From Luminiphilus sp. (GTDB lineage: Bacteria; Planctomycetota; UBA1135; UBA2386): 35,313 nucleotides of DNA. Location of the stretch: the NCBI GenBank assembly GCA_041236755.1, contig JBERSB010000236.1, forward strand, positions 1 to 35,313, in the 5' to 3' direction. The notes below the pieces were generated by a model. That model saw only the letters and a program-made list of their open reading frames with translations, ran no database searches and was not told the origin of the DNA. Positions 5,830 through 25,048 of this stretch are shown piece by piece. The translations under genes and the position numbers were made by a program. Each line of letters starts with the position of its first letter. Positions within the stretch are counted from its first letter, which is position 1.

Positions 5830-7722
5830 CTACTGCCAGTTCTCCCACTGTTCGTAGGCCTCGGCCAGCTCCTGCTTGAGCCGCGCTTCGTCGGACTGCA
5901 GGTCGCGCATGCGCGCAGCGCTGCCGTAGTTCTCGGGCTCCAGCATCGAGGCCTGCACGGACTCGACCTCGCTCTCGAGGTCCATGATCCGCTGCTCGAG
6001 GCGCTCGAACATCAGCGGGTTGCGGATCTTGCCGGTGTCGCGCGCGAGCTTCGGCGAGGCCTCGGCGGCGGCGCGGTCCGCGGCGCGCTCCTTGGCCGCC
6101 GTCTCGGCGGCGCGTAGAGCGGAGCGCTCGTCGGCGAGCGCGCGCTGGCACTGCTCGAGGCCCTGGTCGAACGTGCGAACGGCGCCGGCCTCGACCCAGA
6201 GCACGCGGTCGGCGACCTCCTCAACCAGCTGACGGTCGTGCGTGATGAGGACGACGGTGCCGGGGAACTCCTTGAGCGCCTGCTCCAGGCCTTCGGTGCC
6301 GGCGACGTCGAGGTGGTTGGTCGGCTCGTCGAGGCACAAGAGGTCGAACTGCGCCCGGGTCATGCGCGCCAGCGCGAGCCGCTGCTTCTCACCGCCCGAC
6401 AGCTCCACGACCGGCTTCTCGACCTCGTGGCCGACGAACAGGAACATCGCCAGGTGATCCCGCAGCGTGCCGTCGTCGATCGTGCGGTCGAGCTCCCGGA
6501 GCGCGTCGAGCACGGTGCCGGACTGCGGGAGGTCGGACTTCTCCTGGCTGAAGTAGCCGATCCGAAGGTTGTGCGCGTGCTTGAGCGCGCCGCGCGCGGG
6601 CACGCCGTCGCGCGCCAGCAGCCGCAGCAGCGTCGTCTTGCCGGCGCCGTTGCGGCCCAGCAGCGCCGTGACCTCCCCGAACCAGACGCGCAGCGCGCCG
6701 CGCTCGATCAGGAGCTTGTCGCCGGCGCGCACCTCGAGCCCCTCGCCCTCGATCGCCACCTGTCCCTCTTGTCCGCGGGTGGTCTGGCCGAAGGTCAGCT
6801 TCATCTGGGCGCGCTTGCCCTTGGGCTTGCCGATCAGCTGCAGGCGCTGCAGGCGCTTCAGCCTGCCCTTGGCCTGCGCGGTCTTCTGGCCGGCGATGTT
6901 GCGCCGGATGAAGTCCATCTCCTTGGCGACGAACTCGGCCTGGTTCTGGTGCTGGCGCTGGAGCGCGAGCAGCGCCTGGTCCTTCTGCTTGCGGTAGGCG
7001 GAGAAGTTCCCCTTGTAGCGCGTCGCGACGCCGTCGGAGACCTCGACGACCGCGTCGGCGACCCCGTCGAGGAAGCGGCGGTCGTGGCTGATCACGACGA
7101 CCGCGCCCGGATAGCGCCGGACGAAGTCCTCGACGAACTCGATGCCCTGCAGGTCGAGGTGGTTGGTCGGCTCGTCCAGGATCAGCAGGTCGGCCGGCGT
7201 CGTCATCAGCACCGCCAGCTGCACGCGGGACTTCTCGCCGCCGCTGAGCACCGAGACGTCCTTGTGGAGGTCGCCGTCGGGGAAACCGATGCCGCTCAGC
7301 ACCTTCTCGACCTGGTGCTTGCGGTCGTAGCCGCCGCCCGCCTCGAAGGCCGCCTGCAGCTCGCCGTACGACGCCAGCGCCTCGTCGTCGCCGCTCGCCA
7401 TCCTCGCCTCGAGCTCTCGCATGCGTGCTTCCAGCGCCGCGTGCTCGCCGGTGCCGTGCTGCACGAGCTGCTCGATGGTCGTGCCCTCGGGCATGCGCGG
7501 CATCTGCTCGCCGTAGGCGATGCGCAGCTGGCGACGGCAGTTGCGCCCGCCGCTGTCGGCGTCGTCGACGCCGGCCAGGATGCGGATCATCGTGGTCTTG
7601 CCCGCGCCGTTGTCGCCCACGACCCCGATACGGTCGGATTCGTCGACGCGCAGCGACAGGCCGTCGAGCACGGGGAAGTCGCCGAAGCGGCGGGTGATCT
7701 TCTCGAGGCTGACCAGGGTCAC
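5830..7722 (-). CDS. ABC-F family ATPase (Uup/YheS-like, two ABC domains, no TM domain)
   Basis: 630 aa with a GTG start. Two Walker A motifs (GDNGAGKTT, GRNGAGKTT), two signatures (LSGGEKSR, LSGGEKQR) and two Walker B motifs (LLILDEPTNHLD, LLCLDEPTNHLD). The C-terminus is a coiled-coil tail. Confidence 0.9.
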   Translation of the reverse strand: MTLVSLEKITRRFGDFPVLDGLSLRVDESDRIGVVGDNGAGKTTMIRILAGVDDADSGGRNCRRQLRIAYGEQMPRMPEGTTIEQLVQHGTGEHAALEARMRELEARMASGDDEALASYGELQAAFEAGGGYDRKHQVEKVLSGIGFPDGDLHKDVSVLSGGEKSRVQLAVLMTTPADLLILDEPTNHLDLQGIEFVEDFVRRYPGAVVVISHDRRFLDGVADAVVEVSDGVATRYKGNFSAYRKQKDQALLALQRQHQNQAEFVAKEMDFIRRNIAGQKTAQAKGRLKRLQRLQLIGKPKGKRAQMKLTFGQTTRGQEGQVAIEGEGLEVRAGDKLLIERGALRVWFGEVTALLGRNGAGKTTLLRLLARDGVPARGALKHAHNLRIGYFSQEKSDLPQSGTVLDALRELDRTIDDGTLRDHLAMFLFVGHEVEKPVVELSGGEKQRLALARMTRAQFDLLCLDEPTNHLDVAGTEGLEQALKEFPGTVVLITHDRQLVEEVADRVLWVEAGAVRTFDQGLEQCQRALADERSALRAAETAAKERAADRAAAEASPKLARDTGKIRNPLMFERLEQRIMDLESEVESVQASMLEPENYGSAARMRDLQSDEARLKQELAEAYEQWENWQ

Positions 7723-7779: not shown

Positions 7780-9075
7780 TCAGCGCCGTCCCTGCAGCCG
7801 CTGCGCGCGACGCGCGATGCGCTGGTCCTGGTCTGCGGAGTAGGTCGCGAGCAGCTGGGCGCGCTCGGCGCCGGTCAGCAGGTTCGCGAGCGAGGTCAGC
7901 GCGCTGGAGCGCAGGCTCCAGTCCTGAGAGCTCGACAGCACGTCACGGAGGACGCCGAGCGAGTCTGCGCCAGGCGGCATCCGCATCAACAGGCCGATCG
8001 CGTGGTCGCGGATCGCGACGTCCGGGTCCGACGCCGCTGCGCGCACGATGACGGCGCGGCTGACGGGGTCCGCGGGCTGTTGGCCCAGCAGCATCGCGTA
8101 GGCGAACGTGCGCATCTCGAACGACATCCCGGGTTGCGCCCAGGTCTGCAGCTGCTGCTGGGTGTCGGCGTTGAAAGACGACTCGTGCAGCGCCGTCTCC
8201 ATGCGCAGGCGGTACTCGTCGAAGCCCGGGCGGCCGGCGGCCTGCACGACCTCGTCGACGATGTGCTGCGCCTCGTCGCCCAGCTTGCGTCGGGTCCAGA
8301 CGCCGAGGTTCTGGCCGAGCAGGGCCGCGATGCCGTCGTCCATCTCGTCGGCGAGCGCGGTCCTGAAGCGCGTGCGCGTGAACTCGCGGTCGACGCTGAA
8401 CTGCATCGCGCCGGCGGCCGCGAGGCGCACGCCGGGGCGCGCCCGGTCGAGCAGCAGTTCGCCGAGCTTGGCCTCGACGGCGGGGTCGTCGATCACGTTG
8501 CGGACCGTGATGCCCATTCCGCCCGGTCCGTGGACGGCGAAGTGCGGCGCGGCCTCCATGTCGAACACGTCGTCCTCGTCGGGGGGGTCGCGCAGCGCGC
8601 CGAGCGCCGCGATCAGCGTGATCAGGGTCGCCTCGTCCTCGGCGAACTGCTCGACTGCAGCGAGCAGCACCTCGTCGACACCGTCGACGGCGAGCGTGCC
8701 GAGCACCATGGCGAGCGCGCGGCGCTCGTCCGGCGCCGTGCCGGCGTCGAGCAGCGCGGCGTAGGCCGCGGCGAGCGCGCCCTCGTCGGTGCGCAGCAGG
8801 CGGCGCATGGCCGCGGCCGCGCCGGCGGCCTCGTTGCGCGCGATGGCTGCGCCGAGCTCGCGGAACGCCGCGTCGAACGGTTGCTCGACGGGGGCTGTGC
8901 TCGGCGCGACCTCGCGCCGGCTGTGTGCGGGCGCGTCGGCGGCCGGCGCCTCGCGTGCGGCCTCCGCTCGCTCCTCGGGCGCCGCAGCCGTGCGCGGGTC
9001 GTCGGTGAACGGCGACCACGCGAGCGCGGCGACCACGAGCAGCGCTGTGGCCGCGAGGAGCAGGCGTACCGCCAT
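7780..9075 (-). CDS. Membrane-anchored hypothetical protein with alpha-helical (HEAT/ARM-like) repeats
   Basis: 431 aa with an N-terminal anchor MAVRLLLAATALLVVAALAW, strong GC3 bias, and HEAT-like segments (DPDVAIRDHAIGLLMRM..., SLRSSALTSLANLL). It starts 10 nt after the subtilase stop. I do not recognise a specific family. Confidence 0.65.
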   Translation of the reverse strand: MAVRLLLAATALLVVAALAWSPFTDDPRTAAAPEERAEAAREAPAADAPAHSRREVAPSTAPVEQPFDAAFRELGAAIARNEAAGAAAAMRRLLRTDEGALAAAYAALLDAGTAPDERRALAMVLGTLAVDGVDEVLLAAVEQFAEDEATLITLIAALGALRDPPDEDDVFDMEAAPHFAVHGPGGMGITVRNVIDDPAVEAKLGELLLDRARPGVRLAAAGAMQFSVDREFTRTRFRTALADEMDDGIAALLGQNLGVWTRRKLGDEAQHIVDEVVQAAGRPGFDEYRLRMETALHESSFNADTQQQLQTWAQPGMSFEMRTFAYAMLLGQQPADPVSRAVIVRAAASDPDVAIRDHAIGLLMRMPPGADSLGVLRDVLSSSQDWSLRSSALTSLANLLTGAERAQLLATYSADQDQRIARRAQRLQGRR

Positions 9076-9085
9076 CAGGACGCGA

Positions 9086-10243
9086 TCAGTTGTTGACGTG
9101 CTCGGCGACGCCGTGGCCCCAGCCGTTGTCGCGGCCGGTCGGGCCGGCGTCGTCGGCGTAGTTGATCAGCGTGTTGAGCACGTTGTTCGGGCTGCCGTTC
9201 CAGAGCGCTGCTGCACAGCCCGCGACGTGCGGACAGGCCATCGAGGTCCCGGAGATCGTGTTGTAGCTGCCGTTCTTCCACGTGGACTCGACGTTGTGTC
9301 CGGGCGCCGAGAGCTCGACGTCCGGGTTGCTCGACGAGAAGCACATCAGCGCGTCCATGGCCGTCGGGTCCGTGGTCGTCGCGCCGACGCTCACCACGCT
9401 GCTGTAGTAGGCGGGGTAGTTGATCTCGTTGGTCGAGAGGTTGCAGTCCCCGTCGTTGCCCGCCGCGGCGACCAGGAGGCTGCTGCCGGCGGCGCTGTTG
9501 CACGCGTTCTGCATGGTCGCCGACGTGTAACCGCCGCCGAGGCTCATGCTGATGATGTCCGCGTTGCTCGCAGACCAGTTGATGCCGCTGATGACGTCGG
9601 AGTAGGAGCCGCTGCCGCGACGGTCCAGCACCTTGACGGCGAGCAGCGAGGCGTTGTGGGCGACGCCGACGACGCCGACGGTGTTGTCCGACGCAGCGAC
9701 CGTGCCGGCGCAGTGCGAGCCGTGGCCGTTGTCGTCGTCGGGGGCGCCGTTCTTCACGTAGTTGATGCCGCCCGTGATGTTGGCGATCAGGTCCGGGTGG
9801 TCCATGTCGATGCCGGTGTCGATGATCGCCACCAGGACGTTGCTGACGGGGATGGGGACAGCGCCGCCGACCCGGATGATGCCGGGCGGCGTCGTCTGGC
9901 CGCCACCGCCGCCGCCACCACCGCCGGTGTTGCCACCGCCACCGCCGCCACCGCCACCGCCGCCGCCACCGTTGCCCGGCTTGAACGCGGACACGACGTG
10001 ATCGAACTCGACCGACGCGATCTCACGGTCGCGACGCAGCTGGGCGACGATCGCCGCGGGCACGCGGGCCGTCACGGCTTCCTCGCCGTAGATGTGCTTG
10101 TCGATCCGGACGCCGTGCTCTGCGAGCAGCTGCTGCGAGACGACGTCCTTGAAGGAGATGATGACGGGGACGTCCCGGTCACCCTGGGCGAGCAGAGAAG
10201 AGCCGAGGCAGATCGGGAGGAGGAGCTGGCGAATGGGCTTCAT
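9086..10243 (-). CDS. Secreted subtilisin-family (S8) serine protease with an I9-like propeptide and a poly-Gly linker
   Basis: The signal peptide MKPIRQLLLPICLGSSLLAQG begins at ATG 10243 (the ORF track extends to GTG 10282). Propeptide-like region: VIISFKD...ASVEFDHVV. Catalytic triad motifs: AIIDTGID (Asp), HGSHCAGTVAA (His), SGTSMACPHVAG (Ser). Confidence 0.9.
   Translation of the reverse strand: MKPIRQLLLPICLGSSLLAQGDRDVPVIISFKDVVSQQLLAEHGVRIDKHIYGEEAVTARVPAAIVAQLRRDREIASVEFDHVVSAFKPGNGGGGGGGGGGGGGNTGGGGGGGGGQTTPPGIIRVGGAVPIPVSNVLVAIIDTGIDMDHPDLIANITGGINYVKNGAPDDDNGHGSHCAGTVAASDNTVGVVGVAHNASLLAVKVLDRRGSGSYSDVISGINWSASNADIISMSLGGGYTSATMQNACNSAAGSSLLVAAAGNDGDCNLSTNEINYPAYYSSVVSVGATTTDPTAMDALMCFSSSNPDVELSAPGHNVESTWKNGSYNTISGTSMACPHVAGCAAALWNGSPNNVLNTLINYADDAGPTGRDNGWGHGVAEHVNN
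9899..9970 (-). repeat. (GGY)n low-complexity tract encoding Gly13-Asn-Thr-Gly9 inside the subtilase gene
   Basis: Read directly from the sequence: 13 GGC/GGT codons (9932-9970), then AAC ACC (9926-9931), then 9 GGC/GGT codons (9899-9925). Confidence 0.95.
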
Positions 10244-10452
10244 GAGATTCCGTGTACCTACGTGTTCCATGACGTGACGCACGTCGCGTCGTTACGACGT
10301 AGGTGAGAACCCTAAAGTGCCGTCAGCTCGCGGAATATCCGCACTGGGGCGTATCTCCGCAGAGTCGGGAGCGGCTCCTCAGCACATGCGCGTAGACGCC
10401 GAGCGCACCGCTCGTCGATCACACGGATCGAATCGAATACCGTCGTCGCCGC

Positions 10453-11586
10453 GTGCTACTCCATCCCGAATACGCGCTCCGCGCGCTGTCGCTCGCCGCG
10501 ATCGTGCTCGCAGCAGCCCCGTGCTCGCCGGCCCAGAAGAAGCGGGGCAGCGCGATCGCCAAGGCGGGCCTCGAAGACCGGTTCACGTCGAAGGACCCGG
10601 TCGCGATGGCTAGGCTCGGCGTCGTCGACTACGGCCCGCTCGTGTGGGCTGACAACAAGCGGACGACCGACATCGAGAAGGTGCTGGGCGAAGGCCGGTT
10701 CCTCTGGATGGAAACGGAGCACTTCAAGATCGGGAGCAGCTTCGGGTTTGCGGCGGCGCCGAAGAACCCCCAGGCCCGACGACTGCTCAAGGAGGAGCTG
10801 AAGCGGCTCCACAAGAAGTGCTCCAAGATCCCCGCGAGCGCCAGCAAGCTCGACCCGTGGCTGCGCCTGCACCTCTACGCGCAGCGCGCCGAGGAGCTGT
10901 ATCACGAGTTCGCCGAGCTGGCGGGCAAGGCCGAAGGCGGGGCGCGTCTGGGCGAGAAGCAGAAGGTCCTGCTGCTCCTGTTCGAGCAGCGCTCCGACCT
11001 CGCGCGCTACTTCAAGTCGTTCTGCGGTCGCGAGACGCAGATGTCGCAGCGCCACACCCACTACGGGACCGGCCACCAGGCGCTGATCATGACGGCGGAG
11101 GGGGACGACGGTTTCCGTGACTCGGAGACCTTGCACGCGCAGTTCCGCTACCACGTGATGCAGCTGTTCACGAGCGTCGCGGGCGGCGGGCCGCTCTGGC
11201 TGCAGTACGGCCTCGCGCACGCCTACGAGCGCATGGTGCCGTGCAACATGATCAACTGCGGGGTGCGCGCCGACGAGAACGTAGACCGGACCAAGCTCTA
11301 CGAGTGGGACGAGAAGATCCGCAAGCGCGTCAAGCACGAGGCGCTCGTGATCCCGTTCGAGAAGCTGACGCGCGAGGTCGACCTCGGCTACTACGGCCAC
11401 CTGCAGGCGTGGGCGCGGGTCGAGTGGATGCTGCAGGACCGCGCGCGCTTCTCGCAGTTCCTCGGGCAGGTGTTGGGCGCGCCGTCACGATCGCGGCAGG
11501 TGGCCGCGCTGATGCAGGTCTACGACCTGAAGCCCGCGGAGTTCGACGACGCGTGGCGGGAGTGGTGCCAGAAGCACTACAAGTAG
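10453..11586 (+). CDS. Exported hypothetical protein, possibly a degenerate peptidase-MA-like (DUF1570-like) fold
   Basis: 377 aa with a GTG start and N-terminal hydrophobic signal ALSLAAIVLAAAPCSPAQ. Strong GC3 bias. Motif WMETEHFKI is present. The region RYHVMQLF...PLWLQYGLAHAYE resembles HExxH...WLxEGLAxY of MA-like peptidases, but the catalytic residues are substituted. Confidence 0.6.
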   Translation: MLLHPEYALRALSLAAIVLAAAPCSPAQKKRGSAIAKAGLEDRFTSKDPVAMARLGVVDYGPLVWADNKRTTDIEKVLGEGRFLWMETEHFKIGSSFGFAAAPKNPQARRLLKEELKRLHKKCSKIPASASKLDPWLRLHLYAQRAEELYHEFAELAGKAEGGARLGEKQKVLLLLFEQRSDLARYFKSFCGRETQMSQRHTHYGTGHQALIMTAEGDDGFRDSETLHAQFRYHVMQLFTSVAGGGPLWLQYGLAHAYERMVPCNMINCGVRADENVDRTKLYEWDEKIRKRVKHEALVIPFEKLTREVDLGYYGHLQAWARVEWMLQDRARFSQFLGQVLGAPSRSRQVAALMQVYDLKPAEFDDAWREWCQKHYK

Positions 11587-11602: not shown

Positions 11603-12865
11603 CTACATCAGGCGGTACTCGACCGCGTGCCGCTCGCCGTCGCGCACGTACTCGACGAACAGCCGGGTCGGCCGCGCGCGGCTGCAGAGCTTGCGCGCGA
11701 CCGCGAGCAGCGACGCTGCGCTCTCGACGGCGACGCCGTTGACCGACGTGATCACTGCCTCGGCAGGAATGGCGAGCGGCGCCAGCGCGTCGGGGACGCG
11801 CGCGAGGCGGTAGCCGGAGAACCACTTGCCGTCCTTGTCCTGGCCGCGGAACGGGTCGCCGATGCTGGACTGCTCGAGCGCTTGCACGCCTGCTGCGGCG
11901 ACCGCGTCGCGCTCGGCGCCAGGGAACAGCTGGATGATCGTGTCGTTCAGGTTCCGGATCGCCGGGAACAGGTGCTTGCCGGCGAGGTCGGCCCACGCGC
12001 GCAGCGCCGCCGCGTCCTCGGGCGGCGGCGCGAGGTCGGCCGGGCCGATCGACTGGATCAGCGCGATCGCCGCGTCCTTCACCGCCTCGTCGTCGTCCTC
12101 CAGCAGCTGTTGGACCCGGGGCAGCGCGGGCTCGAGCCACGCCTGGGCGAGGTCGATGCGTACGTCGAACACCTGACGCAGGAACCACAGCCCCTGCGCG
12201 CGGTCGATCGCGGCCTCGCAGTCGAGCAGCTGGAAGAACGGAACGAGCCGGAGCGAGTGGAGGTGGTCGCGCTCGTCGGGGGCGCGCGTGAGGCCGCGCG
12301 CCTTGGCGGCGGGCGAGCCGACCTGCGGCATGTTGGCGACGACCAGCGCGCGCTCCTCGTCCGTCAGGTCGCCGAAGCGGCGGCCGAGGTGGGCGCGCAA
12401 GAACGCCGCTGCCCGCGGCAGCGCCATCTCGCGGGTCGCGCGCACCGGCTCGCCGGGGATGTGGCTGATCAGCTCCATGACGTAGCCGATGTTGTCGCAG
12501 TAGAAGCTGCCGAAGTAGGCGGTCCTGCGCTGTCCGCCGTCGCGGTGCAGCCGCATCATCTGCGCGAGCAGGCCCGCGTCGATGCCGAGCTGCTGCACCC
12601 TGTCGTGCGCCGCGCGCCACGCGTCGTGGTCGACGACCTGCCGGCCCTTGTCGTCGTAGCGGGCCTTCTCGGGCATCTTGTCGGCGATGCCCTGCATGAT
12701 CCGAAGGTTGCGGAACAACTCGTCGGGCGGCGCGTAGACGTCGGCCGGCGAGCGGAACGGCGACAGGATGTCGCGCTCCGGGTAGCCGCAGCGCAGCGGC
12801 TCCTGCGAGACCGCAGCGGGCGCCAACAGCGCTGTGAGCAGGGTCGTCCGGGAAGCGACGTTCAT
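11603..12865 (-). CDS. Exported hypothetical protein with a C-terminal PDZ-like domain
   Basis: 420 aa with signal peptide MNVASRTTLLTALLAPAAVSQ. The C-terminus GYRLARVP...IPAEAVITSVNGVAVESAASLLAVARKL...LFVEYVRDGERHAVEY has a PDZ-like pattern. The N-terminal 300 aa are helical and belong to no family I recognise. Confidence 0.65.
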   Translation of the reverse strand: MNVASRTTLLTALLAPAAVSQEPLRCGYPERDILSPFRSPADVYAPPDELFRNLRIMQGIADKMPEKARYDDKGRQVVDHDAWRAAHDRVQQLGIDAGLLAQMMRLHRDGGQRRTAYFGSFYCDNIGYVMELISHIPGEPVRATREMALPRAAAFLRAHLGRRFGDLTDEERALVVANMPQVGSPAAKARGLTRAPDERDHLHSLRLVPFFQLLDCEAAIDRAQGLWFLRQVFDVRIDLAQAWLEPALPRVQQLLEDDDEAVKDAAIALIQSIGPADLAPPPEDAAALRAWADLAGKHLFPAIRNLNDTIIQLFPGAERDAVAAAGVQALEQSSIGDPFRGQDKDGKWFSGYRLARVPDALAPLAIPAEAVITSVNGVAVESAASLLAVARKLCSRARPTRLFVEYVRDGERHAVEYRLM

Positions 12866-12914
12866 GGGTGCTGCGTGCTAGTCCTCGAGGGGTGGGGTCG
12901 TAACGGCCTGCCGG

Positions 12915-16429: not shown

Positions 16430-16504
16430 CAGCCCGACAAGGGCCGCAGCCGGGTAGCTGCACGCGGCGGGGGCATCGGGTCGGCGCCCTGCTAGGATCC
16501 TGCG

Positions 16505-17509
16505 ATGCTGTCCTTCGAGCAGATGATCCAGGCGGTCGACTCGCACACCGCAGGCGAGCCGACGCGCGTTGTCACCGGCGGGCTGCCGCAGGTCCCGGGC
16601 GCGACGATGGCCGAGAAGCGCGACGCGCTGCAGCGTGACCACGATCATCTGCGTCGCGCCCTGGTGCTCGAGCCGCGCGGTCACGACGCCGTGATCGTTG
16701 CCTACCTGCTGCCACCGACGCGCGAGGACGCCGACCTCGGCGTGGTCTTCGTCAACGACGCGGGCTACCTCGGTATGTGCGGGCACGGCTCGATCGGCCT
16801 CGCGACGACGGCGGTGGCGATGGGCATGGTCAAGCCGGTCGAGCCCTACACGACGATCCGGCTCGACACGACCGTCGGGCTGGTCGAGTGCAAGGTGCGC
16901 GTCGAGGGCGGCCGGCCGAAGAGCGTGACGATCACCAACGTGCCGTCGTTCCTCTACAGGCAGCGGGTCCGCGTGCCGGTGCACGGCTTCGGCGACGTGG
17001 CGGTGGACATCGCGTACGGCGGCAATTGGTTCGGCTTCGTCGAGGCCGACCAGCTGGGCCTGATGGTCGAGAAGGCGCACCTGCCGGTTCTGATGCAGGC
17101 GGCTACCGCGATCCGCGAGTCGCTGGTGCGCGAAGGGGTGCGCTGCGTGCACCCGGAGATCGGCACCGAGGACATCGTCGACCACATCAAGCTGTTCGTA
17201 CCGCTGGACGGCGACCGGCCGGGCGCGCGCGCGCTGACGCTTTGCCCCGGTACGGCCTACGACCGTTCACCTTGCGGGACCGGCACGTCGGCCAAGCTCG
17301 CGGTCGTGCACGCCAAGGGGGAGCTCGGCGTCGACGAGTGGTTCGACAGCGACAGCGTGCTCGGCACGCGGTTCGAGGCGCGCGTGCTCGGCACGACCAA
17401 GGTCGGCGAGTTCGACGCGGTGATCCCGGAGATCACCGGGTCGGCGTGGATCACGAGCATCGCGACGCACGTGATCGACCCGGACGACCCGTGCCGCTAC
17501 GGGAGCTGA
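16505..17509 (+). CDS. Proline racemase family enzyme (proline racemase or 4-hydroxyproline 2-epimerase; both catalytic Cys present)
   Basis: 334 aa. DSHTAGEPTRVV is at the N-terminus. The first catalytic Cys is in GYLGMCGHGSIG and the second in DRSPCGTGTSAK. This Cys/Cys pair is the racemase/epimerase type, not the dehydratase type. Confidence 0.9.
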   Translation: MLSFEQMIQAVDSHTAGEPTRVVTGGLPQVPGATMAEKRDALQRDHDHLRRALVLEPRGHDAVIVAYLLPPTREDADLGVVFVNDAGYLGMCGHGSIGLATTAVAMGMVKPVEPYTTIRLDTTVGLVECKVRVEGGRPKSVTITNVPSFLYRQRVRVPVHGFGDVAVDIAYGGNWFGFVEADQLGLMVEKAHLPVLMQAATAIRESLVREGVRCVHPEIGTEDIVDHIKLFVPLDGDRPGARALTLCPGTAYDRSPCGTGTSAKLAVVHAKGELGVDEWFDSDSVLGTRFEARVLGTTKVGEFDAVIPEITGSAWITSIATHVIDPDDPCRYGS

Positions 17510-17522
17510 TCGGCCGCGCCGG

Positions 17523-18845
17523 CTACTTCGTCAGGTTCTCGTAGAGCCACGTGAACGAGACGCGCTGCGGCCGCGGCTCCAGCTCGTCGAGCGCGGCCTG
17601 CGTCGGCGACAGCTCCTTGGTGATCTCGGCCATCTGCGGACGGATCTTGTCGTAGGCATCGGCGAACGCCTGCTGGGCCGCGTCGCCCTCGAGTCCCTCG
17701 CGGGCCTTCGCCGCGCGCGCGCTGAGCGTCCGCATCTCGGCCCGCAGCTCTTCGAGCCGCTCGCGCAGCTCGGTCGCGCGCTGCTTCTCCGCGTCGCTCA
17801 GGTCGCGCTGCGCAGGCTGCCACATCGAGTAGCCGCCGACGATCAGGTCGAGGTCACCGTCGCCGTCGAAGTCCACGGCGTCGGGGTGCAGGCCCGCGTC
17901 GGGCCGCGCGGGCGCGCCCTCGCTGTCCTTCGGGCTGGGTGCGATCAGCTGCACCGGCGTGCCGAAGCGCGACTCCCCGGTCGAGGTCTCGTTGAGGTAG
18001 ACGGCGACGCCTCCGCCAGCACTCTTGCCGTAGGGGTCGCCCATGCCGCTGACCATCAGGTCGAGCACGCCGTCGCGGTTCCAGTCGACCGCGCGGATCG
18101 TCGCGACCGTGCCCTCGTCGCGCATCGGCGCGCCGGCGGCCGAGACCAGCTCGTTGCGCGACGCGAACTTCGGTGCGCGGTTCGTGCCCTCGTTGCGGCG
18201 CAGGTAGACGTAGCCGCCCTTGTGGTCGCCGAGCACGAGGTCGTAGTCGCCGTCGCGGTCGTAGTCGAACGCGATCGCCGAGGTCAGGTGGCCGTTGGCG
18301 GGCGCGCCGCCCGGTGGATCACACCGGTCCGTCTCGTCCCACTTGCTCTCGTCGAAGTTCCACCACGCGTTGAGCACGATGCGTCGGCCCTCCTTGTCGA
18401 CGATGCCGACGGGCTGCAGGTAGCCCTCGCGCTCGTTGTCCCAGTAGCTGACGTGCGGAGAGCCGTCGAAGATCCCGCAGACGATGTCGTCGTCGCCGTC
18501 GCCGTCGAAGTCCACGAACTGTGGACTCATGCCGATGCATCACCAGTTGCCGAAGTCGAGGATCTTGCCCTCTACGTCCTTGAGCTTCTGCTCGGCGGCG
18601 AACGTGCCGTCCTCCAGCTGCCGGGCGTACGTGATGTGCCCGCGCAGGTCGCCGACGACGATGTCCGGGCGGCCGTCGCGCACCAGGTCGTAGGAGACCG
18701 GCGACGGGTAGAGCCGGCCCTTGCCGCAGACCTTCTCACCTGCGCGCAGCATCACAGGTGCTGCGAACAGGGCGCGCTGCGCGGTCGCGAAGGAGGAGAG
18801 GGTCGCGCCGCACGCGAGCGCGACCAGGAAGCGTGGGGTGTGCAT
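17523..18845 (-). CDS. Exported FG-GAP/VCBS-repeat beta-propeller protein with a C-terminal coiled coil; interrupted by one in-frame TGA (18540-18542), so either a candidate selenocysteine codon or a pseudogene
   Basis: Track ORFs 18540..18875 and 17523..18530 are in the same frame, separated by TGA plus 3 sense codons: ...KILDFGNW-TGA-CIGMSPQFVDFDGDGDDDIV. The signal peptide MHTPRFLVALACGATLSSFATAQ begins at ATG 18845 (GTG 18875 is an alternative start). Repeat motifs: FVDFDGDGDDD, FDYDRDGDYD, VDWNRDGVLD, VDFDGDGDLD. Confidence 0.75.
18508..18528 (-). promoter_or_regulatory. SECIS-like hairpin downstream of the in-frame UGA
   Basis: The mRNA reads UGA-UGCAUCGGCAU-GAGUCCAC-AGUUC-GUGGACUU. 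There is an 11-nt spacer, then an 8-bp stem (7 Watson-Crick pairs plus 1 G-U) and a 5-nt loop with G at loop position 2. Confidence 0.35.
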
Positions 18846-18900
18846 CGTATTCGTCGGAGGGCGAAAGGATAGCACGCCGCGCCCGGCCCGGGCCCCGCCC

Positions 18901-19281: not shown

Positions 19282-19349
19282 GGTGGCAGTGGCGCTGCAC
19301 CGCTCATCGTCCAGATGCCCGCGCCCGTTGAGTCCGCTATGTTGGGGTG

Positions 19350-20135
19350 ATGCGCAGAGCGGCGTTGGCGGCGGTGGTCTTGACCGGATGCGTGAGCTTC
19401 CACCCACGCAATCCACCGTGGCGTCAGCGCGCCGACGCCGACGGGCAGGCAGTCGCCGAGGCGGCTGCCGCGCGCCCGGCGTCGACGGTCTCTTCTTGGG
19501 AGACCATCGGCCGCAGCCACGAGGGCCGGCCGCTGCGTGTGCGTCGCGTCGGCGACGGGCCGCGCCGCGTGATCTGGATCGGCGGCATCCACGGCAACGA
19601 GCGCGAGGGCGTCGTGTCGACGGCGGAGCTCCCGGACGCGCTGGCCGCGGTTCCGGGCGCGCTCGAGCAGGTGACGCTGACGATCCTCGAGGACGTCAAC
19701 CCCGACGGCACCGCGGCGAACACGCGCGGCAACGCGCGCGGCGTCGACCTCAACCGGAACTACCCGGCCGGTAATTATCTTCCCGGGCCGCGCTACGGCG
19801 AGCGGCCGTTGGACCAGCCCGAAGCGCGCGCGCTGCACGACCTGATCCGCGCCGAGCGTCCGCACCTCGTGATCGTCGCGCACAGCTGGCGCAACGACCA
19901 CTTCATCAACTACGACGGCCCGGCAGTGCGCTTCGCCGAGCGGTTCTCGCGCCACTCCGGCTACCGGGTCAAGCCGTCGGACAAGATCGCGCCGACGCCT
20001 GGCTCGCTCGGCTCGTGGGTGGGCCGCACGCTGCAGGTCCCGATCCTGACCCTCGAGCACGAGCGCGGGTCCGACGCGCTGAGCTGCTGGCTCGACACGC
20101 GCGAGGCGATCCTGGCGGTGATCCTCTCCAACTGA
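19350..20135 (+). CDS. M14-family zinc carboxypeptidase/amidase-like lipoprotein (MpaA-like)
   Basis: Lipobox AAVVLTGC. Zn motif GGIHGNEREG (HxxE), plus NPDG, VDLNRNYP and LVIVAHSW. The start is ATG 19350, with an adjacent GTG at 19347 as the alternative. Confidence 0.85.
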   Translation: MRRAALAAVVLTGCVSFHPRNPPWRQRADADGQAVAEAAAARPASTVSSWETIGRSHEGRPLRVRRVGDGPRRVIWIGGIHGNEREGVVSTAELPDALAAVPGALEQVTLTILEDVNPDGTAANTRGNARGVDLNRNYPAGNYLPGPRYGERPLDQPEARALHDLIRAERPHLVIVAHSWRNDHFINYDGPAVRFAERFSRHSGYRVKPSDKIAPTPGSLGSWVGRTLQVPILTLEHERGSDALSCWLDTREAILAVILSN

Positions 20136-20148
20136 GCGTCGGTCGGCT

Positions 20149-21171
20149 TCAGCCGCCGCGCGTGTGCATCTCGAGGTGGGGGTTCGCGCGCATCGCGTCC
20201 GCGTGCGCCAGCGCCCCGCGGTCGGCGATGCCGGCGCGCACCTCGGCGCCGCGGTCCTGCCGCGCGCCCCAGACGCCCACGAGCTTCTGGCGCAGCGCCG
20301 CGTCGCTCGCGCCGGCGCGGAGCAGCCCTCTGAGGTCGACTCCTTGGGTGGCGTAGAGGCAGGTGAACAGCATGCCGTCGGCGGTCAGCCGGGCGCGGTC
20401 GCAAGTCGAGCAGAACGGCTGCGTCACCGAGCTGATGACGCCGAAGACGGTGCCGTCCTCGAGCCGGAACCGCTCGGCGGGCGCGCTGTCGCTGCGGGGC
20501 AGGGCCGTGATCGCGCCGAAGCGGTCGGCGAGCAGCTCGAGGATGCGCTGGCGCGAGACGACGCGGTCCATCTGCCACCGGGTCGCGCCGCCGACGTCCA
20601 TGTACTCGATGAAGCGCAGCTCCGCGTCCACCGAGCGCGCGTAGTCCAGCAGCTCGGGCAGCTCGCGGTCGTTGACGCCGTCGATCGCGACCGTGTCGAT
20701 CTTGGTGCCGCGGAAGCCCGCCTCGCGCGCAGCCTCGACGCCGTCGAGCACGCGGTCGAGCTGGTCACGGCCGGTCAGCAGCTCGAACGTGCCGCGGTCG
20801 AGCGAGTCGAGGCTGACCGTCAGCCTGCGCAGGCCCGCGCGCTGGAGCGCCTGCGCGTGCTCGCGCAGCAGCACGCCGTTGGTCGTCAACGCGAGGTCCT
20901 GCAACGGGCGCGCGGCGAGCATCTCGACGAGCTTCGGCAGCTCGCTGCGCAGCAGCGGCTCGCCGCCGGTGATCCGCACCTTGTCGACACCCAGCGCGAC
21001 GAAACCGTCGACCAGGCGCGCGGTCTCCTCGAACGACAGCACGTCCGACCTGGGCAGCCACGTGTACGACTCCTCCGGCATGCAGTACTGGCAGCGGAGG
21101 TTGCAGCGGTCGGTCACCGAGACGCGCAGGTTGCGCAGCGGGCGGCCGAGGCGGTCGGGCATGGCGGGCAT
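20149..21171 (-). CDS. moaA: GTP 3',8-cyclase (molybdenum cofactor biosynthesis protein A, radical SAM)
   Basis: 340 aa. Radical-SAM cluster motif VTDRCNLRCQYCMPEE. C-terminal auxiliary cluster Cys residues (CSTCDRARLTADG...C). MoaA-typical length and motifs throughout. Confidence 0.95.
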   Translation of the reverse strand: MPAMPDRLGRPLRNLRVSVTDRCNLRCQYCMPEESYTWLPRSDVLSFEETARLVDGFVALGVDKVRITGGEPLLRSELPKLVEMLAARPLQDLALTTNGVLLREHAQALQRAGLRRLTVSLDSLDRGTFELLTGRDQLDRVLDGVEAAREAGFRGTKIDTVAIDGVNDRELPELLDYARSVDAELRFIEYMDVGGATRWQMDRVVSRQRILELLADRFGAITALPRSDSAPAERFRLEDGTVFGVISSVTQPFCSTCDRARLTADGMLFTCLYATQGVDLRGLLRAGASDAALRQKLVGVWGARQDRGAEVRAGIADRGALAHADAMRANPHLEMHTRGG

Positions 21172-21232
21172 CGTGGCCCGACGAGGATAGCGGGGTCGGC
21201 GCGCTTGTGAACGCCCTCTGTCGTGGCCCCGA

Positions 21233-22984
21233 CTAGCCCGGCAGCTTCTTCGCGAGGATGCGCAGCTGGTGGCCGCGGCGTCGCGACAGCGGCTCGCCGG
21301 TCTCGGGATCAGTGGGGGGCTTCTGCAGGTTCAGCATGCGCTGCAGCGCCGCGGCCGCGGCGTTGCGCGTGTGGTCGGGCGTGCGGCCGTCCATGAGCAG
21401 GTCGATCAGCAGCATCGCGACGGGCTCCCGCGGCTTGCGCACGATGGCGTTCCACAGCGCCGGTGACACCGGGTTCTTGCGCAGCTCGACCTTGAGCTGA
21501 GGGCCGCCCTGCCGCACGACCGCGAGCGACGCGGTGTCGACCCTCCCGCGGCGCCTGGCGACGTCGCGGATCACGGCGTCGATGTCCTCGTCGAACTGGC
21601 TGCCGAAGGCCAGCGTCAGCACCCGCTGCAGCACCATGGTGTGGTTGTGCAGCGGCTCGCAGACGCCGCGGCCGGCCTTGGCGATGCGCTGGAACTGCGT
21701 GTGCGTGTCGTCCCCCGCTCGTTCGGGGCTGGTGACCAGCGTGTGCACGAACGACCTGCGGTCCCCGGTGAAGCGCCGCACCTTGCCGAGCAGCCGCTTG
21801 AGGTCACGCCGGTGCGTGGGCGCGTCGCCGGCGAGCACGATCACGCGGCGCGCGCCCTCGCGCCAGCGCTGGCCGATGGCCGACGACAGGCCTGCGGAGA
21901 CGTCCTCGGCGCGGTCGCCGCCGCCGCCGGCGTCGACGTACTGCACGAAGTTGCTGGCGCGCCAGTAGTCGAGCGCCAACGGCACCTGGCGGACGCGGTA
22001 GTCCTCCTTGTCGCCGTTGTCCCGGTAGGTCACGAGGCCGAACCGCGCGTCGGGGACCAGCGTGCGTAGCACGTCGCACATCTCGACGATCGTCGCCTTG
22101 GTGTCGTTGATCGTGCTGGTCATCGAGCCCGTACTGTCGAACACGAACACGATCTCGAGCCCGGTCTTCTGCAGCTCTTCGACCTCTCTGCGGAAGCTGC
22201 CCGACCCGACCTCCCCGCTGTTGCTCGCGCCGCGGACGCCGTCGCCTCCCTGCGGCGCGCGTCGCCGGGCGCCGATCTGCGGGTTCTCGAGCGGCTGCTC
22301 AGGCGGCTGGTCGCGGATCTCGAAGCTCGGGAGCGGCGGCTCCGGCGCGAGCGGGTCCGGCTCCTCGACGGCGTCGTCGACCTCTTCTGTGAGCACCTCC
22401 GGCGGGGCGGGCGGCCCCTCGCCACGCTCCGGGCTCGCGTCGACCTCGATCTGGATCGTCGCGACGCCGGCGCCGCCCGGGGGCGGCGTCTCGAGCAACA
22501 GCGCGAGCGCGAGCAGGACCAACGCGTGGATCACGGCCGAGAGCAGCAGCCAGGGCGCGCGGCGCAGGTGCTCGGCGACGAGGTCGGTGAAGGTGCGCTG
22601 TTCGTAGCGAAGCGCCGAGGCCGCTGCGCGCACGCTCTGCATGCGGCGCTGCTGCGCGGCCTGCCGGAGTGCTGGGATCGGGACCAGCGCTGCGGAGCCG
22701 TCGTCTGCGACGACCACCATCAGCTCGCCCGCGAGCGCGATCCGGTCGCCGGGGCGCAGCGCGGCCTCGACGACGCGCTCCTCGTTGACCAGGATGCCGT
22801 CGCCGCCGCCGAGGTCGCGGATGCGGGCGCCGTCGCCGACGTGGATGCACGCGTGCCGCGGGGCAGCGTCCGCGATCCGCAGGTCGCAGTCGTCGGCGCT
22901 TCCGAGCAGGTAGTCGCGGCCGGGCTCCAGCGCGTGGCACGCGCCGCCGAGTCGCAGCGCCAGCAGTGGGGAGCCTGGTTCCAC
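21233..22984 (-). CDS. FHA domain / single TM / von Willebrand factor A domain protein with a C-terminal helical-repeat region
   Basis: 583 aa. N-terminal FHA-like region (YLLGSADDCDLRI...HACIHVGDG..IRDLGGGDGILVNEERV). TM helix WLLLSAVIHALVLLALALLL. A Pro/Glu-rich linker follows. The VWA domain has MIDAS motif VFVFDSTGSM plus LAGDAP. Confidence 0.85.
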   Translation of the reverse strand: MEPGSPLLALRLGGACHALEPGRDYLLGSADDCDLRIADAAPRHACIHVGDGARIRDLGGGDGILVNEERVVEAALRPGDRIALAGELMVVVADDGSAALVPIPALRQAAQQRRMQSVRAAASALRYEQRTFTDLVAEHLRRAPWLLLSAVIHALVLLALALLLETPPPGGAGVATIQIEVDASPERGEGPPAPPEVLTEEVDDAVEEPDPLAPEPPLPSFEIRDQPPEQPLENPQIGARRRAPQGGDGVRGASNSGEVGSGSFRREVEELQKTGLEIVFVFDSTGSMTSTINDTKATIVEMCDVLRTLVPDARFGLVTYRDNGDKEDYRVRQVPLALDYWRASNFVQYVDAGGGGDRAEDVSAGLSSAIGQRWREGARRVIVLAGDAPTHRRDLKRLLGKVRRFTGDRRSFVHTLVTSPERAGDDTHTQFQRIAKAGRGVCEPLHNHTMVLQRVLTLAFGSQFDEDIDAVIRDVARRRGRVDTASLAVVRQGGPQLKVELRKNPVSPALWNAIVRKPREPVAMLLIDLLMDGRTPDHTRNAAAAALQRMLNLQKPPTDPETGEPLSRRRGHQLRILAKKLPG

Positions 22985-23744: not shown

Positions 23745-24008
23745 GCAGCAGGCCCGCTCTCCGACGCTCTGCAGCGCTGCGGACCGGCGCCTGGCCGACT
23801 GTCGGAGATGCGGCCAGCTCCGCTGCAGACTGTCCGTTCCCTGGACAGTCGCCGGCAGCCCCCGTGCCGTGGGCTGCACGGTGGCCGCCCGCGACCCGGA
23901 CGGTATCGGGACGGACAGCGAGACAGGCGTCAAGGCGCGCCCGTTCCGAGGTCGATAGCTGAGGAGCGTGGACCTCCCGCGCCTCTGAACGCACCCGAGA
24001 TCCTTCTC

Positions 24009-24182
24009 TTGACCGAGTCGAAGCCCGACGTCGACCGCATCGTCGAAGACCTGATGCACCGCGACCTCCCCAAGGCGCAGCGCATCGCGTGTCTCCGCGA
24101 GTTGGCGCGCTCTGGCGACGACATCCCGGACGAGCTGATGGACGAGGCCCTGCGCAAGCTGATGGAGCGGATCACCGAGTGA
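24009..24182 (+). CDS. Small hypothetical protein (about 57 aa; start uncertain, with TTG 24009 or ATG 24054 as candidates)
   Basis: Third-position G/C content jumps from about 60% to about 95% near 24009 within track ORF 23808..24182. The product is helical and acidic: ...VDRIVEDLMHRDLPKAQRIACLRELARSGDDIPDELMDEALRKLMERITE. There is no clear ribosome-binding site and I recognise no family. Confidence 0.4.
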   Translation: MTESKPDVDRIVEDLMHRDLPKAQRIACLRELARSGDDIPDELMDEALRKLMERITE

Positions 24183-24226
24183 TCACCAGACCTTCCAACC
24201 GACCCGAGAGACGAATCAGAACCACC

Positions 24227-25048
24227 ATGAGGACTGCACTGCTGCTTACGTGCCTGGCCGGCGTCGCCGCGCTCCCCGCGCAAGACAACGAGTTCAGCGC
24301 TCCTGTCCGCACGACCATCGGGTCGATGCGCGCGAACCCCGACGCCTACCAGAACGTCAAGGTCGTGTTCACCGCGCAGTTCGCGTCGCTGGGCCGGATC
24401 TCGAACCCGTTCTTCACCCAGTTCACGCCGACGGACTACACCAACTTCTACGCGTGGAGTGACGACCAGCCGATCTGGGAGGAGAAGTCCTACAACGACG
24501 TGTTCGGGATGCTCTTCCTCAACAAGTCGAACCCGGAGCTCGAGCAGATCTACAAGATGCCGCTCTACGCGCGCATGCGCTGCACCGGGGTCGTCCGCAA
24601 CACGTTCCAGAACACGCCGTGGGTCGAGGTGCTCAGCTTCTCGGTGCTGGACGAGCGGCTCGACAACGCCGTGCTGACGCACCTGCACCGCGGCGAGAAG
24701 CTGATGGCGGAGCGCCTCTGGCAGCGCGCCGTCGGCGAGCTCTCGATGGTGCTCGGTGACGACGTCCCGGCCCCTGCGATGCAGACCGCGCACAAGAACC
24801 TCGGCATCTGCATGCTGCGCATGGGTGAGTCGAAGGCTGCCGTCGGCTACCTGCAGTCGGCCGTCGCCCTCTCGGAAGGCGCCGACATCGAGGCCAAGCA
24901 GCTGCTCCTGACCGCGCAGCGCAACCCCGAAGAGGCGATCGACCGGGTGGTGGACTCGAGCAGCCTCCGCGACAGCGAGCGCCCGATGTGGGAGGCGTTC
25001 GAGACGGCCGGCGCCAGCTCGGGCCCGACCCGCGTGCTCAGCCGCTGA
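24227..25048 (+). CDS. Secreted hypothetical protein with a TPR-like C-terminal half
   Basis: The start is ATG 24227 (MRTALLLTCLAGVAALPAQ signal peptide). The upstream part of track ORF 24089..25048 is non-coding. The C-terminal half has TPR-like helices (GEKLMAERLWQRAVGEL..., HKNLGICMLRMGESKAAVGYLQSAVAL). Confidence 0.7.
   Translation: MRTALLLTCLAGVAALPAQDNEFSAPVRTTIGSMRANPDAYQNVKVVFTAQFASLGRISNPFFTQFTPTDYTNFYAWSDDQPIWEEKSYNDVFGMLFLNKSNPELEQIYKMPLYARMRCTGVVRNTFQNTPWVEVLSFSVLDERLDNAVLTHLHRGEKLMAERLWQRAVGELSMVLGDDVPAPAMQTAHKNLGICMLRMGESKAAVGYLQSAVALSEGADIEAKQLLLTAQRNPEEAIDRVVDSSSLRDSERPMWEAFETAGASSGPTRVLSR

Follow-up and report, generated by a model that had tools for sequence, protein, structure and literature searches.

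The question raised by one locus in contig JBERSB010000236.1 of the planctomycete assembly GCA_041236755.1 is whether an in-frame TGA ends a gene, marks its recent decay, or is translated. The analysis covered a 35-kb stretch of this source genome (35,313 nucleotides (nt), GC content 70.5%; hereafter the window), on the minus strand of which lies a gene for an exported protein with FG-GAP repeats that is interrupted by a single TGA with a hairpin just beyond it. An initial annotation of the window had proposed that the gene was either a new selenoprotein or a recent pseudogene; the first proposal is supported by the retention of both the TGA and the hairpin among relatives and by homologues bearing cysteine at the site, and the second has been abandoned. 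The reading that we favor, at a probability of roughly 0.92, is that the UGA would be decoded as selenocysteine (Sec) through standard recoding by SelB and a selenocysteine insertion sequence (SECIS), yielding one exported propeller protein. The gene almost certainly belongs to a large, uncatalogued family of exported FG-GAP propeller selenoproteins in Planctomycetota whose members are annotated in databases as two separate genes, and we classify it as a new selenoprotein family, not a new mechanism.

Read through the TGA, the complete coding sequence occupies positions 17523..18845 of the minus strand (440 codons), with its ATG at 18845-18843, the putative Sec codon as codon 102 at 18540..18542, and a terminal TAG at 17525-17523. 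The upstream piece (residues 1-101; 18543..18845), usually annotated as a separate small open reading frame (ORF), begins MHTPRF (extended, MHTPRFLVALACGATLSSFATAQ) and ends GKILDFGNW before the TGA at 18542-18540, after which the frame resumes as CIGMSPQFVDFDGDGDDD (longer stretch, CIGMSPQFVDFDGDGDDDIV) and runs to the TAG at 17525-17523. The first codon past the TGA is a TGC (18537..18539) for Cys103, vicinal to the predicted Sec. Within the downstream piece (residues 103-440; 17526..18539), gene callers begin at an invariant Met106 (ATG 18530-18528), giving a product of 335 amino acids (aa). The initial annotation had described two minus-strand ORFs in one frame, parted by the TGA at 18540-18542 and three sense codons, and the pieces at 18543-18845 and 17523-18539, with nothing but the TGA between them, confirm this arrangement; its statement that one FG-GAP unit crosses the stop agrees with a Pfam FG-GAP_3 match to residues 53-122. 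It had likewise taken TGA to be a normal stop in the window, as is found in 12 of the 28 ORFs supported by GC content at third codon positions (GC3), the remaining stops being TAG in 16 and TAA in none. Since TGA and TAG are both ordinary stops here, genome-wide recoding is not at issue.

In the proposed mechanism, the UGA at 18540-18542 would be recoded to selenocysteine during translation, and the hairpin at 18508-18528 would act as a bacterial SECIS element: with the UGA in the ribosomal A site, it would bring in SelB loaded with GTP and Sec-tRNA(Sec). The product would be one exported selenoprotein of ~440 residues.

The joined protein was searched against 5.8 billion proteins, which returned 1265 clusters at 90% identity (E<=0.001); the best 120 matches (97% to 47% identity, 329-358 aa) span only the 75-76% of the protein located past the TGA. 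An exhaustive search of the exact 101-residue upstream piece against 1.84 billion representative proteins recovered dozens of 50%-identity clusters of 95-156-aa proteins, all of which terminate at the Trp preceding the TGA. Because the best matches begin after the TGA, gene callers have evidently split the whole family there. A syntenic orthologue with an identical junction is present in the 6.59-Mb contig JBKAGP010000001.1 of a Planctomycetota metagenome-assembled genome (MAG; loci L001/L002). When genomes were scanned, one for each GTDB species, with two peptide patterns taken from the part of the protein past the stop, 80 loci were obtained at 38-76% protein identity, nearly all from Planctomycetota MAGs; we refer to these loci as subfamily 1. 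The TGA stands at the same codon in 80/80 of these loci (79/79 when only unique loci are counted), in the context N-W-TGA-C-[I/T]-G-M-S-P-Q-F-V-D, and the tblastn matches extend across both sides of it. The codons just 5' of the TGA vary synonymously (AAC/AAT, TTC/TTT), and the adjacent Cys codon is TGC in 79/79 loci and in 70/70 full-length sequences of the codon alignment. No Cys form of subfamily 1 was found among the 80 species or the scored database matches. Several MAGs carry two paralogues each (L013 and L046, L014 and L069, L029 and L065, L058 and L070, L037 and L080, L008 and L073), with the TGA and hairpin kept in both copies.

The ratio of nonsynonymous to synonymous substitution rates is 0.44 for the upstream piece versus 0.59 for the downstream piece, values that are inflated by extreme GC3 codon bias and saturation; they indicate comparable constraint on both pieces and tell nothing more. 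An ATG and a signal peptide with an AxA-Q site lie 97-122 codons 5' of the TGA in 62 of the 70 full-length members, which upholds the earlier observation that in the window only the upstream piece bears a signal peptide. Conservation at the other end of the protein is absolute for R428 and W433 and close to it for L434, Y435, E436, and N437.

These data bear directly on the possibility that the gene is a recent pseudogene, or that an ordinary FG-GAP gene shows a TGA only through an error of sequencing or assembly. The window taken alone would allow it, as it offers a single in-frame stop, a codon that is a normal stop at 70.5% GC, and a hairpin that is statistically ordinary in one sequence. 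Against it stands the same TGA in 80/80 independent genome loci, in the complete genomes of two cultured strains (described below), and in additional metagenome contigs; paralogues in the same MAG both retain it, the two halves are comparably constrained, and a systematic artefact is implausible given the independent sequencing technologies and projects involved. With the TGA invariant, both halves constrained, and the signal peptide kept, a pseudogene or base-call error is excluded, and we consider its probability negligible.

The putative SECIS hairpin, GAGUCCAC-AGUUC-GUGGACUU, occupies 18508..18528 of the minus strand (5' arm 18528-18521, loop 18520-18516, 3' arm 18515-18508). It begins exactly 11 nt past the UGA with an 8-bp stem of seven Watson-Crick pairs and one G-U pair, and its 5-nt loop, which starts 19 nt after the UGA, has G at position 2 followed by U. 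The hairpin is present in both the minimum free energy (MFE) and centroid folds and has an energy of -10.9 kcal/mol when folded alone. The published bacterial SECIS (bSECIS) model calls for 3-9 nt in the loop, 4-16 bp in the stem, a G within the first two loop positions that is usually followed by G or U, a UGA-to-loop distance of 16-37 nt, and an MFE of <=-7.5 kcal/mol (PMC13188914), and the upper stem-loop of Escherichia coli has the same 11-nt offset from its UGA (PMC8659212). The window hairpin satisfies all of the published bSECIS criteria. Every geometric detail given by the initial annotation (an 11-nt offset, seven Watson-Crick pairs and one G-U, a loop G at position 2, and a 19-nt distance) was confirmed, and the SECIS rules it had applied (11 nt to the stem, a G in the first two loop positions, and 16-37 nt) agree with those published.

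Judged from one sequence, the hairpin carries little weight as evidence and is not exceptional; its significance comes from the comparison of homologues and not from the window alone. Across the unique loci, the codons past the UGA that form the hairpin are Ser AGT in 79/79, Pro CCA in 78/79, Gln CAG in 79/79, Val GTG in 79/79, and Asp GAC in 78/79, and the alignment of 70 full-length genes gives the same picture (AGT 70/70, CCA 69/70, CAG 70/70, GTG 70/70, GAC 69/70). Codon entropy in that alignment is ~0 bits at these positions versus 0.3-1.7 bits in ~60 other conserved columns. The frozen AGT, CCA, and GTG codons are otherwise rare in the gene, which elsewhere uses TCG for Ser, CCG or CCC for Pro, and GTC for Val. 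Only two stem changes occur within subfamily 1 (A-U to G-U and G-C to G-U), and both remain paired. The motif CCACAGTTNGTGG was found nowhere else in ~1 Mb of fetched sequence. The near-invariance of the hairpin is probably explained by its also encoding the conserved strand and the start of a calcium loop (SPQFVD).

A more distant group of relatives supplies the cysteine forms. In the N-terminal search, the only colinear full-length relative was P0226 (406 aa, 30% identity), the Cys of which aligns with the UGA. A search with P0226 led to a sister subfamily, centered on Gemmataceae and Pirellulales and ~30% identical to subfamily 1, that comprises full-length proteins of ~400-437 aa and many fragments of ~285-305 aa covering 71% of P0226. 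The junction of the full-length proteins is mostly CC[IV]GFTPQLVDLDGDG (CC[IV]GFTPQLVD and close variants), so the U-C of the window corresponds to C-C. The short fragments are Sec forms. Two of these come from cultured strains with complete genomes, Gemmata obscuriglobus (CP042911.1, gene at about 6,144,623-6,145,861) and Frigoriglobus tundricola (CP053452.2), in which the junction reads ...EPG-TGA-DIGFCPQLVDLDGDG (as a Sec-form peptide, ...GTIEPG-U-DIGFCPQLVDLDGDGK) and the hairpin is GUCCAC-AGUUG-GUGGAC, with the loop again 19 nt past the UGA. This Gemmata group has U-D at the site and a Cys five residues later. Further U-C forms with the same hairpin core, GUCCAC-AGUUN-GUGGAC, were found in metagenome loci L085-L092; the scan that yielded them was based on the sister alignment and settled on generic DWDGDG patterns, such that ~70 of the 80 loci it returned encode unrelated FG-GAP proteins and L085-L092 alone were of use. 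The residue at the UGA position in homologues had been proposed as a check, and the outcome, Cys or a TGA with the hairpin, favors the selenoprotein reading.

Three Cys-form loci encode PQLVD as CCG CAG CTT GTC GAT, CCA CAG TTG GTC GAT, and CCG CAA TTG GTT GAT, and these codons abolish the hairpin, which is thereby lost in 3 of 4 Cys-form loci. Since these Cys forms specify an identical peptide with no hairpin present, the structure goes with the UGA rather than with the peptide, and the claim that the amino acid sequence does not force the hairpin is upheld. The fourth locus, L168:1001-2239 (P0275), is a Cys form close to the Gemmata group (A-G-C-S-V-G-F-R-P-Q-L-V-D) that retains CCC CAG TTG GTG GAC, and its hairpin looks like the SECIS remnant of a recent Sec-to-Cys conversion.

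The sister subfamily also informs a second alternative, namely that there are two genes: a small exported protein that ends at the TGA and a second product re-initiated at Met106, with the hairpin serving translational coupling or regulation. Met106 is indeed invariant in subfamily 1 and used as the start by gene callers, and its ATG overlaps the base of the hairpin. In the sister subfamily, however, Phe replaces Met106, and the Gemmata and Frigoriglobus genes lack an ATG anywhere from the TGA to the start that was called, so that callers resort to an internal TTG. Moreover, one FG-GAP repeat and one Pfam match cross the stop, the full-length Cys forms are colinear over the junction, and a separate downstream product would be a cytoplasmic partial propeller, as the signal peptide lies only upstream. 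We therefore regard a pair of genes as highly improbable.

Several results weigh against decoding of the UGA as Sec or limit what can be drawn from it. The 81-nt region around the site folds no better than shuffled sequences (z = +0.49), and of all TGA triplets that the window contains (649), ~4.9% precede a hairpin of >=8 bp with SECIS-like geometry. No Rfam family was matched at the gathering threshold, nor in the site region at E<=10. Covariation is minimal: the 5-6 core pairs never vary, one outer pair changes from A-U to G-C in three sequences, and the stem of L090, a Sec-form locus, is broken by a C-U mismatch. With the stem near-invariant, covariation is almost absent, and the case for an RNA structure rests on frozen synonymous sites rather than on compensatory changes. 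No selA, selB, selD, or tRNA-Sec was found in the 35-kb window or the fetched flanks, the search having covered tRNA-Sec in the window and 81 loci and Pfam scans of 20 window ORFs. Finally, support for the predicted incorporation of selenium at U102 is at the sequence level, and the role of the U-C pair is one that we infer.

That no Sec machinery was seen for the source organism speaks for a third alternative, in which the UGA is read through as something other than Sec, whether by near-cognate insertion of Trp or Cys or by a lineage-specific suppressor; the residues flanking the UGA are indeed Trp and Cys. Evidence for Sec decoding in carriers of the family is indirect and comes from two sources. 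First, selA, selB, selC, and selD are listed for G. obscuriglobus (Kim et al. 2016, Table S8, PMC4807772). Second, a search for additional in-frame TGAs with high-GC3 coding sequence on both sides turned up a gene at L014:1906-2856 (minus strand) for a deiodinase-like protein with EF-hands at its N terminus. This gene shares a MAG contig with a propeller gene ~3.1 kb away, and its PF00837 match (69 bits) spans a TGA at 2347-2349, in the canonical active site FGSYT-U-PPF. Deiodinase-like proteins are a catalogued prokaryotic selenoprotein family (PMC13188914). The putative SECIS of this gene differs, having a CGGU-type loop. The sel genes of G. obscuriglobus and the known selenoprotein gene beside a family member both argue against non-Sec read-through, as do the bSECIS geometry and loop sequence of the hairpin, its loss exactly where a Cys codon replaces the UGA, and the use of TGA as a normal stop in these genomes; we judge such read-through to be very unlikely. 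We infer that decoding in the source organism is SelB-dependent. In locus L004, on a GC-rich MAG contig, ARAGORN reported a 91-nt 'tRNA-Pyl' with anticodon CTA (6331-6421), ~300 nt 3' of the propeller gene, which is probably a false positive.

The predicted protein carries a Sec-pathway (secretory) signal peptide at residues 1-22 (18780..18845, minus strand), read from the sequence as MHTPRFLVALACGATLSSFATA with Q following the cleavage site. Five FG-GAP/VCBS repeats span residues ~45-345 (17811..18713, minus strand), as delimited by Pfam and motif reading, with a DxDxDG-type calcium loop in each; all five motifs are readable in the window protein, and the joined protein matches PF13517 (FG-GAP_3) at 79.7 bits (cut-off 26.9) and PF01839 at 30.5 bits (cut-off 22.1). 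Structure was modeled on a CC-form homologue, P0282, from a 38-sequence alignment. The resulting AlphaFold model (mean predicted local distance difference test score (pLDDT) 93.1, predicted template modeling score (pTM) 0.88) contains five four-stranded blades, a helical hairpin at 316-381 (helices 316-348 and 354-381), and two terminal strands at 384-394. By comparison with these helices, a helical hairpin (coiled-coil) insertion is placed at residues ~350-423 of the window protein (17577..17798, minus strand), where weak WXG100/SMC-like matches are also found, and the conserved C-terminal strands, QRVSFTWLYENL (17532..17567, minus strand), correspond to the terminal strands of the model, which suggests that they probably rejoin and close the propeller after the helical hairpin. 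NCBIfam release 20.0 gave only weak coiled-coil matches below the cut-off.

The CC pair of the P0282 model lies in a loop immediately before the innermost strand of blade 2. By this model, Sec102-Cys103 would sit in the second repeat, in the loop that joins its 'FG' half to its 'GAP-like' (MSP) half, and the innermost strand of that repeat would follow directly. In integrin-type propellers, the ligand-binding face carries the loops that lead from each blade into the innermost strand of its successor, and so the Sec may lie near the usual functional surface. The closest Protein Data Bank neighbors of the model are Psathyrella velutina lectin (PVL), chains of the KICSTOR complex that we take to be ITFG2, UmbA4, and CRTAC1, at template modeling scores of 0.36-0.40, which are consistent with a non-canonical number of blades. 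The protein departs from the seven-bladed integrin-alpha/PVL type in having five FG-GAP blades and a helical hairpin in the model. It likewise lacks a thioredoxin-like match in Pfam or NCBIfam, its motif being W-U-C-I-G instead of UxxC or CxxU and its fold a propeller.

What the pair might do is a separate matter. We see about an even chance that the vicinal U-C forms a reversible selenenylsulfide serving as an extracytoplasmic redox or catalytic center. A serious alternative, because catalogued adjacent Cys/Sec dipeptides cluster in metal-handling families, is that the protein is a true selenoprotein, an exported propeller for binding or sensing, in which Sec-Cys would hold a soft metal or metalloid such as Hg, Cu, or As rather than form a redox-catalytic selenenylsulfide. 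Those dipeptides are mainly metal-related, as in the GxUC of CopZ-like proteins and the CU of SaoL, HgcA, MbdU, and SaoC (PMC13188914); the nearest structural neighbors of the P0282 model (PVL and UmbA4, both lectins, and CRTAC1) are binding proteins and not enzymes; and the genes flanking the Gemmataceae member, described below, suggest sensing. Metal-handling genes are not, however, conserved beside the subfamily-1 gene, and the U-D of the Gemmata group, with its Cys five residues on, implies that strict adjacency is not required. On balance we think a metal site less likely than a redox or catalytic center.

Gene context differs between the two subfamilies. All-against-all clustering of flanking ORFs found no neighborhood common to subfamily 1 beyond close relatives, and context therefore gives no functional clue there. 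Propeller genes of the sister subfamily have a WD40 gene on either side at L082:765-6110, L084:756-6133, L165:1-5557, and L168:1-3239, the 5' neighbor being a large WD40 protein fused to an extracytoplasmic function (ECF) sigma-70 or a BlaR1-like Peptidase_M56 domain and the 3' neighbor a WD40 protein of ~400 aa. This WD40-propeller-WD40 arrangement looks like a conserved signaling-type operon. Taken jointly, the proposals that this is the first beta-propeller class of selenoproteins, that subfamily 1 is Sec-obligate, that the U-C pair is a new extracytoplasmic selenium center, and that the Gemmataceae protein is a redox or metal sensor at the cell surface form a tentative whole with the odds somewhat against it. 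If true, the near-invariance of the SECIS across subfamilies that are ~30% identical would show how strongly a sequence can be fixed when an RNA code and a protein code overlap in it.

Comparison with known systems places the family among familiar elements in an unfamiliar combination. Like E. coli fdhF, it has an in-frame UGA and a coding-region stem-loop that starts 11 nt downstream; unlike fdhF, its hairpin is almost sequence-invariant over more than 80 species, has no evident bulged U, and is unrelated in stem and loop sequence. The C-terminal GCUG of mammalian thioredoxin reductase is one example of adjacent Cys and Sec. Others are form 1 of the CopZ-family (2Fe-2S)-binding protein (GxUC) and the CU proteins SaoL, HgcA, MbdU, and SaoC, which share with the propeller a vicinal pair able to form a selenenylsulfide or chelate a soft metal. 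In the window family the order is instead U-C, the site is a loop inside an exported beta-propeller, and the sequences are not homologous to those of the known pairs, whose contexts are ferredoxin-like, MerB-like, or flavoenzyme. The FG-GAP propellers PVL, ITFG2, UmbA4, and CRTAC1 have the same FG-GAP/FG-GAP_3 repeats with DxDxDG calcium loops, whereas the window family has five repeats in place of seven and a long helical hairpin before the last strands, and none of the known members is a selenoprotein. PQQ (pyrroloquinoline quinone) methanol dehydrogenase has a vicinal Cys103-Cys104 disulfide near a Ca2+-containing active site on its propeller face; as it has eight W-motif blades, belongs to another superfamily, uses a PQQ cofactor, and lacks Sec, the likeness is an analogy only.

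The statement in the initial annotation that no such selenoprotein family is known stands with respect to the current catalogues and is qualified by an older supplementary table. No FG-GAP, VCBS, or propeller family is among the 119 prokaryotic selenoprotein families catalogued in 2026 (Table 1, PMC13188914), NCBIfam has no family-specific model for the propeller family, and there is no mention of the family in deep-Sep, BSepDB, or review texts. Kim et al. (2016, Table S9, PMC4807772) listed, in a supplement only, planctomycete 'ASPIC UnbV / FG-Gap repeat' candidates in which an in-frame TGA divides the gene and for most of which a bSECIS was predicted, and these are likewise not in the 2026 catalogue of 119 families (PMC13188914). 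Those candidates differ in having an ASPIC/UnbV domain and in that their closest homologue has Gly, not Cys (PMC4807772); no UnbV_ASPIC match was obtained for the joined window protein in a Pfam scan at E<=0.1. Beyond these supplementary candidates, we found no literature describing FG-GAP/VCBS or Gemmata propeller selenoproteins.

In the window, the propeller gene is neighbored by a gene of the proline racemase/hydroxyproline epimerase family at 16496-17509 (plus strand), a Peptidase_M14 gene at 19332-20135 (plus strand), and a MoaA gene at 20149-21330 (minus strand), an arrangement that is syntenic with L001 and not kept family-wide. Four other ORFs, at 7780-9165 (minus strand), 10396-11586 (plus strand), 11603-12877 (minus strand), and 23963-25048 (plus strand), have a strong GC3 coding signal and no Pfam match at E<=1e-5.

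Assigning the Sec codon corrects more than 1000 database entries in subfamily 1 and many more in the sister subfamily that are at present split into two hypothetical proteins, including genes in the complete genomes of G. obscuriglobus and F. tundricola. Sec forms have the hairpin whereas Cys forms specify an identical peptide with no such structure, a natural comparison that offers a clean test case for SECIS prediction tools. The understanding of Sec decoding itself is unchanged, and the interest of the family is mainly for specialists. The prokaryotic selenoproteome would gain a non-thioredoxin, exported propeller with calcium loops, the U-C chemistry of which could prove to be new, and the Planctomycetota would gain a widespread marker selenoprotein that is accessible in culturable strains.

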